In this document: positions 7,596-7,890 of the stretch, in pieces
Layout: every line of letters begins with the position of its first letter
How positions within the stretch are numbered: position 1 is the stretch's first letter
Source of the DNA: an uncultured Clostridium sp.
Lineage (GTDB): Bacteria > Bacillota > Clostridia > TANB77 > CAG-508
DNA length: 64,000 nt
Reading direction: 5' to 3'
Assembly: GCA_948434985.1 (NCBI GenBank)
Contig: CAOJFV010000001.1
Span: 36,033-100,032, forward strand
Position numbers and translations under genes: made by a program
The notes under the pieces: generated by a model
The model's input: only the letters and a program-made list of their open reading frames with translations
The model's database searches: none
Told to the model about the DNA's origin: nothing

Positions 7596-7678
7596 TTATT
7601 GTTATTACTACGTGGGAGCGAATTACAAACAACATAAGCCGGACTGTAACAAAAGAGTTACAGTTCAGTCCTATTGAA

Positions 7679-7813
7679 AGAGTGTATATATTTATTTTAT
7701 ACATTACGGATTATAAGCTTCCCACTGGCGCTGTAACAGGCAAAGCCTTAACAGCGCTCGGCGGTCCCCACGTGGCTTAAATCCTTCATTTCTAAAATAA
7801 ATATATACACTCT
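7679..7813. repeat. structured palindromic repeat element, copy A
   Basis: A 21-bp perfect closing stem (agagtgtatatatttatttta / taaaataaatatatacactct) around a GC-richer core. The core is near-identical to 42319..42454, with compensatory substitutions in three helices. Confidence 0.75.
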
Positions 7814-7890
7814 TTCTTAATTAATCTGTGCAAATTATATATAGTAGTCTGAACTGTAACACAAAAGATAAAAAAACATACTAATATATA

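Follow-up and report, generated by a model that had tools for sequence, protein, structure and literature searches.

Upstream of the small SRP RNA gene (ffs) of an uncultured Clostridium lies a repeat whose base changes preserve its pairing, which raises the question of whether it is a selected RNA or a piece of mobile DNA. The locus belongs to a window of 64,000 nucleotides (G000:C1:36033-100032), the whole stretch of DNA that was analyzed. The corresponding assembly, G000, comprises 989,564 bases in 33 contigs, has a GC content of 27.5%, and is judged 77% complete. The original prediction described two copies, A and B, with a shared core and compensatory differences in three helices, and took these as signs of a selected RNA (or ssDNA) fold rather than a decaying MITE. 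Both copies and the core were found in the sequence as described (89% identity over 123 nt), and all three helix differences are present (agagtgt/acactct versus gcaatgt/acattgc, gcgctgt/acagcgc versus atgctgt/acagcat, and taagc/gctta versus taacc/ggtta). The 12-nt arms reported to enclose copy A, gttacagttcag and ctgaactgtaac, are perfect complements. Two motif counts required correction. The motif cacgtgg is found at 7769, whereas position 7610 reads tacgtgg; of the four occurrences counted for ctgtaac, three are direct and the fourth is the reverse complement. The features of the window are as follows.

7596-7865, no strand assigned: whole inserted block, from the stop codon of the upstream gene to the promoter region of ffs (SRP RNA); missing in three near congeners
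7596-7650, minus strand: remnant of the end of a related element, consisting of an outer arm (ccggactgtaac), a spacer, and a family-2-like arm; judged by eye
7657-7668, plus strand: left arm of an outer repeat of ~95 nt, gttacagttcag; perfect complement of 7849-7860
7674-7817, plus strand: copy A, full covariance-model match including the copy-specific outer stem; R1 score 167.4 bits
7676-7684, plus strand: 5' arm of the copy A outer stem, copy-specific (gaaagagtg); pairs with 7808-7816
7685-7699, plus strand: conserved AT-rich arm of copy A, tatatatttatttta; pairs with 7793-7807
7700-7792, plus strand: asymmetric GC-richer core of copy A: three inner helices, internal loops that are conserved, and a bulge, ggtccccac, that stays unpaired; from the consensus fold and pair counts
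7793-7816, plus strand: 3' AT-rich arm of copy A (7793-7807) and 3' arm of its outer stem (7808-7816)
7849-7860, plus strand: right arm of the outer repeat, ctgaactgtaac; perfect complement of 7657-7668
7891-7919, plus strand: promoter-like site of ffs, TTGCTA-17-TATAAT; intact downstream of the insertion
7948-8045, plus strand: small SRP RNA, by Rfam match; intact downstream of the insertion
42315-42458, plus strand: copy B, between mreC and mreD; R1 score 157.9 bits, with a 26-bp perfect stem

The SRP RNA is of the short bacterial type (97-nt model), with the promoter-like site 29 nt upstream, and the promoter sequence is kept in relatives that lack the insertion at the site of copy A (site A). 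Copy A has a perfect basal stem of 24 bp around an interior of 93 nt. Its plus strand, read by eye, contains no ATG; the one ATG frame read on the minus strand of the element runs for 13 codons and has no ribosome-binding site.

A genome-wide search with BLAST and a covariance model (R1, built on a MAFFT alignment of the 15 copies) identified 15 full copies of ~145 nt in G000, distributed over 13 contigs, together with one divergent copy (C13:20318-20460) and several truncated ones. All 15 are intergenic and usually start 12-40 nt past a stop codon. The distribution in the genus is patchy: nine of the 24 congeneric species sampled carry the repeat, with 1-17 hits each. It was not detected in any of 16 genomes from four other families of the order. 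When a strict pattern was used as the query, the only named carriers were three MAGs labeled "uncultured Clostridia bacterium" or "uncultured Clostridium sp."; contig collections from viruses and JGI metagenomes gave no match, a result that speaks for the strict pattern only. DNA of the organism is present in mouse-gut metagenomes (public runs). In one congener, three copies fall within 1.7 kb (L097, G009:C8:35850-37871). The original prediction had assigned no riboswitch or sRNA family, and Rfam 15 offers none: at gathering thresholds, only two tRNAs and the small SRP RNA pass in the whole window, and at E <= 10 the region 7550-7950 gives only chance hits to plant-miRNA hairpins (~20 bits against a threshold of 119 bits).

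Either strand of copy A is predicted to fold into a single long, irregular hairpin, with energies of -61.2 and -63.5 kcal/mol that correspond to z = -9.7 and -8.9 relative to shuffled sequences. The alignment gives a consensus of 44 pairs, arranged in layers. From the outside in, a copy-specific outer stem is followed by the AT-rich arms TATATATTTATTTTA / TAAAATAAATATATA and then by the inner helices. The base of the basal stem pairs an A-tract with a T-tract (AAAAGG...CCTTTT), and the perfect part of the stem has a median length of 16 bp and a maximum of 31 bp across copies. The inner eight pairs of the AT-rich arm (tatatatttatttta in copy A) are invariant or nearly so in the 15 copies. The first inner helix is GGATT-TAAGC / GCTTA-AATCC; the second is built around CC-CTGG-GCTGT / ACAGC-CGG-GG, with GGTCCCCAC unpaired on its 3' side; and the terminal hairpin occurs in two forms, AGGC-AAA-GCCT or AATGC-loop-GCATT.

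Covariation was evaluated in two sets of copies. Among the 15 copies, changes on both sides were seen at 18 of the 44 pairs, a number that none of 500 shuffles reached. The larger set contained 55 copies from G000 and seven other species (eight species in all, from one genus of uncultured mouse-gut Clostridia). Here, 96.6% of the base-pair cells pair, and both-sided changes occur at 33 of 44 pairs (0/500 shuffles). When partners were slid by 1-3 columns, the paired cells fell to 39-51%. The covariation score was 0.456, against 0.142 in shuffles and at most 0.10 with slid partners. The 55-copy alignment was fitted to the model; since an independent MAFFT alignment gives the same pattern, the covariation first noticed in two copies is correct and family-wide. 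The fold is maintained by compensatory change throughout the family.

Comparison with orthologous sites revealed that the copies are not fixed in place. At site A, three congeners (G012, G007, and G016) lack the whole block 7596-7865, and the stop codon of the upstream gene joins the sequence that precedes the ffs promoter. A contig from a public run (X19), belonging to a relative that is ~90% alike, joins 7589 to 7866 and thereby skips 276 nt. At the mreC-mreD spacer, none of 26 congeners gave an alignment of the element of copy B. The spacer was read in seven congeners, and in G007, G012, and G009, the mreC stop codon lies 0-3 nt from the ribosome-binding site of mreD; in G009, the spacer is empty although the genome has 17 model hits elsewhere. 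Copies at C1:28491, C9, and C22 are absent from G012, G007, and G016. Thus, all five copies tested are missing in the nearest species. The same mreC-mreD spacer (window 42255-42560) holds unrelated insertions in other species, of ~100 nt in G016 (L045) and ~160 nt in G024 (L048), and so has been hit by different elements in different species. The inserted blocks measure 190-270 nt; besides a hairpin and the outer stem that belongs to it, each contains 10-55 nt of poorly conserved sequence to either side. No pre-existing palindrome was found at the five empty orthologous sites. Because the blocks exceed the hairpin, carry their own outer stems, and entered sites without a palindrome, the arriving unit appears to be larger than the core. 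The repeat is therefore a mobile hairpin-forming DNA element, with an intergenic location and a host range of a few uncultured Clostridia species from the mouse gut. The original prediction, although confirmed as an observation, is only partly supported as an interpretation, since the contrast that it drew between a selected RNA and a MITE does not hold for a dispersed, insertion-polymorphic repeat that is absent at orthologous sites and occurs in both orientations, including flips.

The further inverted repeats around copy A, in which the hairpin had been described as nested, are not extra helices of one RNA. They are the ends of an outer repeat and the remnant of a related element. The outer repeat of ~95 nt is common to copies A, C3, C5, C11, and C2:13140. 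A coreless version lies outside the window at C7:36265-36379, where its center is the palindrome GAAGAAGTGTATA|TACACTTCTTC (GTGTATA|TACAC; in full, GAAGAAGTGTATATACACTTCTTC), and the core sits exactly at this palindrome center in the five other outer-repeat copies. The C7 sequence is either an unoccupied site or the product of precise core loss between TATATA repeats. In G009, site A is occupied by an island that a contig end interrupts and that measures at least 4 kb (L081, G009:C14:1-3700; L082, G009:C18:35900-36593). Its genes include a GNAT acetyltransferase, an NT5C-like nucleotidase, a RhuM-family protein, and a glycosyl-hydrolase-2. At its boundaries are found the same outer arms (TTACTGTTCAG...CTGAACTGTAC) together with arms like those of family 2, and a 9-bp direct repeat (AAAAGATAG / AAAAGGTAA) appears to flank it. 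When aligned by eye, the reverse complement of 7596-7650 lines up with the left end of the island, of which this segment appears to be the reverse complement. Near one end, the island encodes a C-terminal protein fragment with similarity, over 37 residues, to one of the large serine recombinases of G000; Pfam did not recognize this fragment, which is likely to derive from such a recombinase. With outer-repeat ends and a related-element remnant side by side, site A is a nest of mobile-element ends. The repeat has no fixed association with the SRP RNA or with any gene class, and its closeness to the SRP RNA gene is incidental.

The copies follow no orientation rule relative to genes. By a crude test of flanking ORFs, 48 of the 55 copies could be classed on both sides, giving 16 convergent, 7 divergent, and 25 co-directional contexts, the last divided into 15 sense and 10 antisense, a difference that is not significant. 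An orientation bias as a sign of RNA was rejected on these grounds. Three of nine solid between-species orthologous pairs are flipped end-for-end, while the outer stem and flanks stay put. Outer stems differ from copy to copy yet remain complementary. For example, the cores of copies A and C9 are 97% identical (differing at 4 of 120 positions), whereas their outer stems are unrelated (GAAAGAGTG versus AGGGGAT). Two sister genomes, G020 and G021, with flanks that are 94-96% alike, provide further cases. At one shared site, only one of the two has a family-1 hairpin; its sister has a different hairpin element, whose outer stem is also distinct. At a second shared site, the two elements have identical right outer-stem ends (AATATCTACAT) but differ inside: one contains a family-1 core, the other a GC-rich stretch of ~160 nt that is unrelated to it. 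Cores thus appear to have been exchanged or homogenized between hairpins after arrival.

Other core families are bracketed by related AT-rich arms (gtaatatatttatttt in family 2 and gttatatatttatttt in a third family). Family 2 has the arms GTAATATATTTATTTT / AAAATAAATATATTAC around a different GC-rich core (GTTTCGACAC...CCGCGTACTCCAC), and its copy-specific outer stems are again complementary. These elements are located in G000 as follows.

C3:19733-19835, C3:23375-23480, C4:35645-35745, and C22:5350-5452: family 2, ~100 nt, ~7 copies in all
C1:25015-25116, C2:73723-73794, and C26:10213-10306: further copies of family 2
C18:13471: third core family, with related AT-rich arms

G000 contains 25 hairpins in which a perfect stem of 16 bp or more encloses 40-130 nt, whereas shuffled genomes contain none. 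Among the hairpins of G000 are some with other arms, in which 20-30 bp of perfect stem enclose 60-100 nt (C1:30339-30496, C6:47874-48018, and C1:26078-26222); others of the same kind are found at C20:10899-11007 and C2:15736-15877. They are probably additional families of the same class.

How pairing is kept was addressed with orthologous copies. Between G000 and G009, orthologous cores are 83-87% identical and their mostly coding flanks 81-96%, so the cores are no better conserved than their surroundings, and paired and unpaired columns change at similar rates. In seven orthologous comparisons, 45 pairs have changed, and 14 of these changed on both sides and still pair; by our estimate, about one such compensated change is expected by chance at this divergence. 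In the G020/G021 pair L105/L086, the outer stems differ at three positions and all three are compensated. The excess of compensated double changes over chance indicates that, once a copy had been inserted, its pairing was restored on the spot. One process with this effect would be selection acting on a folded single strand. Alternatively, restoration would result from copying of one arm onto the other at the DNA level, by template switching or gene conversion between inverted repeats, and such copying would also account for the flips and for the frequency of perfect stems 20-30 bp long. If nothing but arm copying were at work, however, the interior should lose its conserved asymmetry, and some constraint on it is therefore likely. 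On one element strand, G-U pairs outnumber A-C pairs 60 to 25 (with one nearly fixed U-G pair set aside), a count to which we give little weight because it comes from few columns and related copies. Sense and antisense copies, relative to neighboring genes, do not differ in this ratio, a weak hint that the relevant strand is one of the element itself and not a read-through transcript. The conserved asymmetric interior and the G-U excess speak against the mobile-repeat reading to the extent that neither would be required at ordinary transposon ends made of double-stranded DNA.

Candidate means of mobilization were sought in the carrier genomes. Direct repeats at the junctions matched a permuted control, and no duplication was visible at five filled-versus-empty comparisons, except for a possible 9-bp repeat around the whole site-A composite. 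The original prediction had named many non-compensatory copies with target-site duplications typical of a MITE as the pattern that would refute it; the additional copies change in a compensatory manner and show no duplication, an outcome in favor of the predicted fold. Neither an autonomous partner IS with the same ends nor a long element bracketed by the arms was found in G000, an assembly that is 77% complete and of a kind in which IS copies often fail to assemble. A link to a Y1/RAYT transposase was rejected: PF01797 had no match in the repeat carriers G000 and G010 and matched strongly in the repeat-free G012 and G006, and across 27 genomes of the genus, the transposase did not co-occur with the repeat. 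G000 has five large serine recombinase genes (Pfam Recombinase domain), four of them at contig ends.

C3:74953-76203, C6:3-1685, C10:25062-26864, C32:3-977, and C15:24347-25981: large serine recombinase genes of G000

None of the five has arms within 4 kb, and large serine recombinases as mobilizers, the G009 fragment included, are no more than a lead. Two insertion models also failed. Insertion into a pre-existing terminator hairpin fits the empty palindrome on C7, but as a general rule it is opposed by the five empty sites without a palindrome, by insertions that bring their own outer stems and extra flanks, and by one sister-genome site with different outer stems. Fold-back copying of one target flank was discarded because the empty sites contain neither of the two outer-stem arms.

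In our judgment, copy A most probably belongs to a group of non-coding, mobile, hairpin-forming interspersed repeats of ~120-145 nt that are MITE-like and resemble ERIC or Correia elements, with the position next to the SRP RNA incidental. A reading that is compatible with mobility, and that we regard as possible though rather unlikely, is that the hairpin is a portable module transcribed at the 3' ends of genes, where it would stop or stabilize mRNA in either orientation, with selection at the RNA level keeping its pairing. The usual start 12-40 nt past a stop codon, the preference for convergent over divergent gene pairs (16 to 7), a stem base resembling those of bidirectional terminators in its A- and T-tracts, the pairing kept by orthologues, and the surplus of G-U over A-C pairs are all consistent with such a role. 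Yet a scan for consensus terminators found no terminator-like site at 7300-8200, including copy A, which is not a short GC-rich stem followed by a T-run; the base of its stem is A/T-rich and the T-tract is itself paired. Some copies also lie inside likely operons (mreC-mreD, and a gap between a stop codon and a ribosome-binding site), where full termination would be harmful. Read-through would predict different G-U excesses in sense and antisense copies, whereas these are equal, and orthologous cores diverge as fast as their largely coding flanks. Among four public runs, all consisting of contigs, a metatranscriptome (X9) has low coverage across the entire region, a pattern that DNA carry-over would give.

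Covariation in every helix and conserved unpaired motifs would also be expected of a dedicated RNA gene or cis-regulatory leader (an sRNA or riboswitch) present in several copies. The core even contains a promoter-like sequence on the minus strand (GTTACA-16-TATAAT, window 7710-7737), made of the conserved CTGTAAC and ATTATAA motifs, which would read outward through the left arm. However, promoter-like matches in the region of copy A number fewer than the shuffle mean, no Rfam family matches, and the flanking genes are unrelated. A leader or sRNA gene should have a fixed orientation and position and conserved orthologous sites; instead, copies occur in both orientations, flip at orthologous sites, are missing from those sites in the nearest species, and at one site are interchangeable with an unrelated core. 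We consider this explanation very improbable. Structure conserved above sequence, with fixed bulges and internal loops, could mark a substrate for recombination of folded single-stranded DNA, comparable to integron attC or the attP hairpin of CTX phage, in which a recombinase reads structure and the cores are cassettes exchanged between palindromic sockets. A strand asymmetry (G-T over A-C) that is independent of host gene direction, the lack of target-site duplication, and the different cores next to the same outer-stem arm in sister genomes agree with this proposal, as does the G009 island of at least 4 kb, with the same outer arms, family-2-like arms, and a likely recombinase C-terminal part near one end. 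Against it stand the lack of a recombinase linked to the arms in G000, the absence of cassette arrays, the few columns and related copies behind the G-U excess, and the failure of Pfam to recognize the G009 fragment; we judge it unlikely.

For the MITE-like mobile repeat that we favor, the observations combine as follows. Each copy has three layers, a copy-specific stem of 8-12 bp, conserved AT-rich arms, and an asymmetric GC-richer core with three inner helices. Copies enter intergenic spacers, mostly just past stop codons, as the 190-270-nt blocks that are observed, and close species differ in their presence and absence. Orthologous copies can flip, one site can hold another core beside the same arm, and pairing can persist through double changes, also between orthologous copies, as the comparisons above document. 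Beyond what is observed, the palindromic arms would be the working part. They may serve as recognition or homology sites for an enzyme acting in trans, or for host recombination or template switching during replication, and activity directed at the arms may insert the element, flip it, swap its core, and keep both arms matched. The conserved asymmetric interior may be needed for propagation as a folded single strand, or may make the element harmless or useful at transcript ends.

A further reading, which we put forward as speculative and doubtful, treats these elements as two-part devices in which AT-rich palindromic "sockets" at gene ends hold interchangeable structured cores that are moved, flipped, and swapped by a recombination system reading folded single strands. 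If true, this would explain the conserved bulges and the strand-specific tolerance of G-T pairs, and the system would be a dispersed, non-coding analog of integron attC or CTX-type single-strand recombination. We know of no folded-single-strand, core-swapping recombination system described in Firmicutes.

Small hairpin repeats make up a large and mostly uncatalogued share of non-coding sequence in gut Clostridia that have not been cultured. This family shows that strong covariation, which is usually taken to indicate a functional RNA, can have another source in mobile hairpins of a selfish or semi-selfish nature; searches of metagenomes for RNA families must therefore check copy number, empty sites, and orientation before a riboswitch or sRNA is called. 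The 55 copies, with their orthologous pairs, flips, and core swaps, form a clean data set for the questions of how arms stay matched and which enzyme moves elements without duplication.

Compared with the description of classical bacterial MITEs (PMC3184786), the repeat has the expected size (<400 bp), is non-coding, occurs in many dispersed copies, has terminal inverted repeats around a core, and forms a long hairpin. It is also mobile, as judged by the absence of all five tested G000 copies from the nearest species; a direct target-site duplication, which this description includes, is lacking. A cognate autonomous IS with the same ends was not found in the 77% complete G000 assembly, although the truncated G009 island has similar arms. 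ERIC, Correia, RUP, BOX, and SPRITE elements are listed as MITEs or MITE-like (Delihas 2011, PMC3184786). ERIC elements, or IRUs, of Enterobacteriaceae are imperfect palindromes of ~127 bp listed among the MITEs (PMC3184786; Wilson and Sharp 2006 cited there), and ERIC-type elements have terminal repeats, target duplications, and flanking TA (PMC3184786). The present repeat is similar in size, is likewise an imperfect palindrome folding into one long hairpin, and shares the intergenic position at gene ends, the two orientations, and a presence that varies between relatives. It differs in having no sequence similarity to ERIC, in its host phylum, in the lack of duplication, and in the outer stem peculiar to each copy. 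ERIC hairpins are reportedly also kept by compensating substitutions.

Correia elements (CREE/NEMIS) of Neisseria are MITEs of ~104-157 bp that duplicate a TA target and carry an IHF site (PMC3184786). Like the repeat, they have terminal inverted repeats around a core, give hairpin RNA, and occur in many copies near genes at locations that differ between close strains; both may carry outward promoter-like sequences. Unlike them, the repeat shows no duplication above the control, has AT-rich arms of ~15-25 bp, and flips in orthologous copies. The pneumococcal BOX, RUP, and SPRITE elements (Croucher et al. 2011, cited in PMC3184786) likewise come from a Gram-positive lineage of low GC content; they are small and interspersed, have a predicted RNA structure, and are positioned as a terminator would be. 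SPRITE is said to resemble a Rho-independent terminator, the movement of RUP is ascribed to an IS630-type transposase and a TA duplication, and BOX is built of modules in tandem (same source). For the present repeat, in contrast, the searches turned up neither a partner IS nor tandem modules, and the terminator scan was negative.

Other comparisons are more distant, and neither a REPIN/RAYT system, an attC site, a plain terminator, nor membership in an Rfam family fits the repeat. With REP/REPIN elements (RAYT/Y1), it shares hairpin formation, many extragenic copies, a presumed action as a folded single strand, and arms that stay complementary, but it is one long asymmetric hairpin rather than two short GC-rich REPs, and Y1 is absent from G000 and does not co-occur with it. 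Integron attC sites are imperfect palindromes of 60-140 nt in which fold, bulges, and one strand matter above sequence, and they too are located directly behind genes. There is a loose similarity between the outer arms GTTACAG / CTGTAAC and attC GTTRRRY / RYYYAAC, with the consensus missed at two of seven positions. In place of cassette arrays and an integrase context, however, the repeat has copies dispersed on 13 contigs among unrelated housekeeping genes. The family is best read as a previously undescribed one within the known MITE/ERIC/Correia-like class, and some of its features are less common: the outer stem is peculiar to each copy, copies flip in place, cores are swapped, and orthologous copies differ by compensatory changes.
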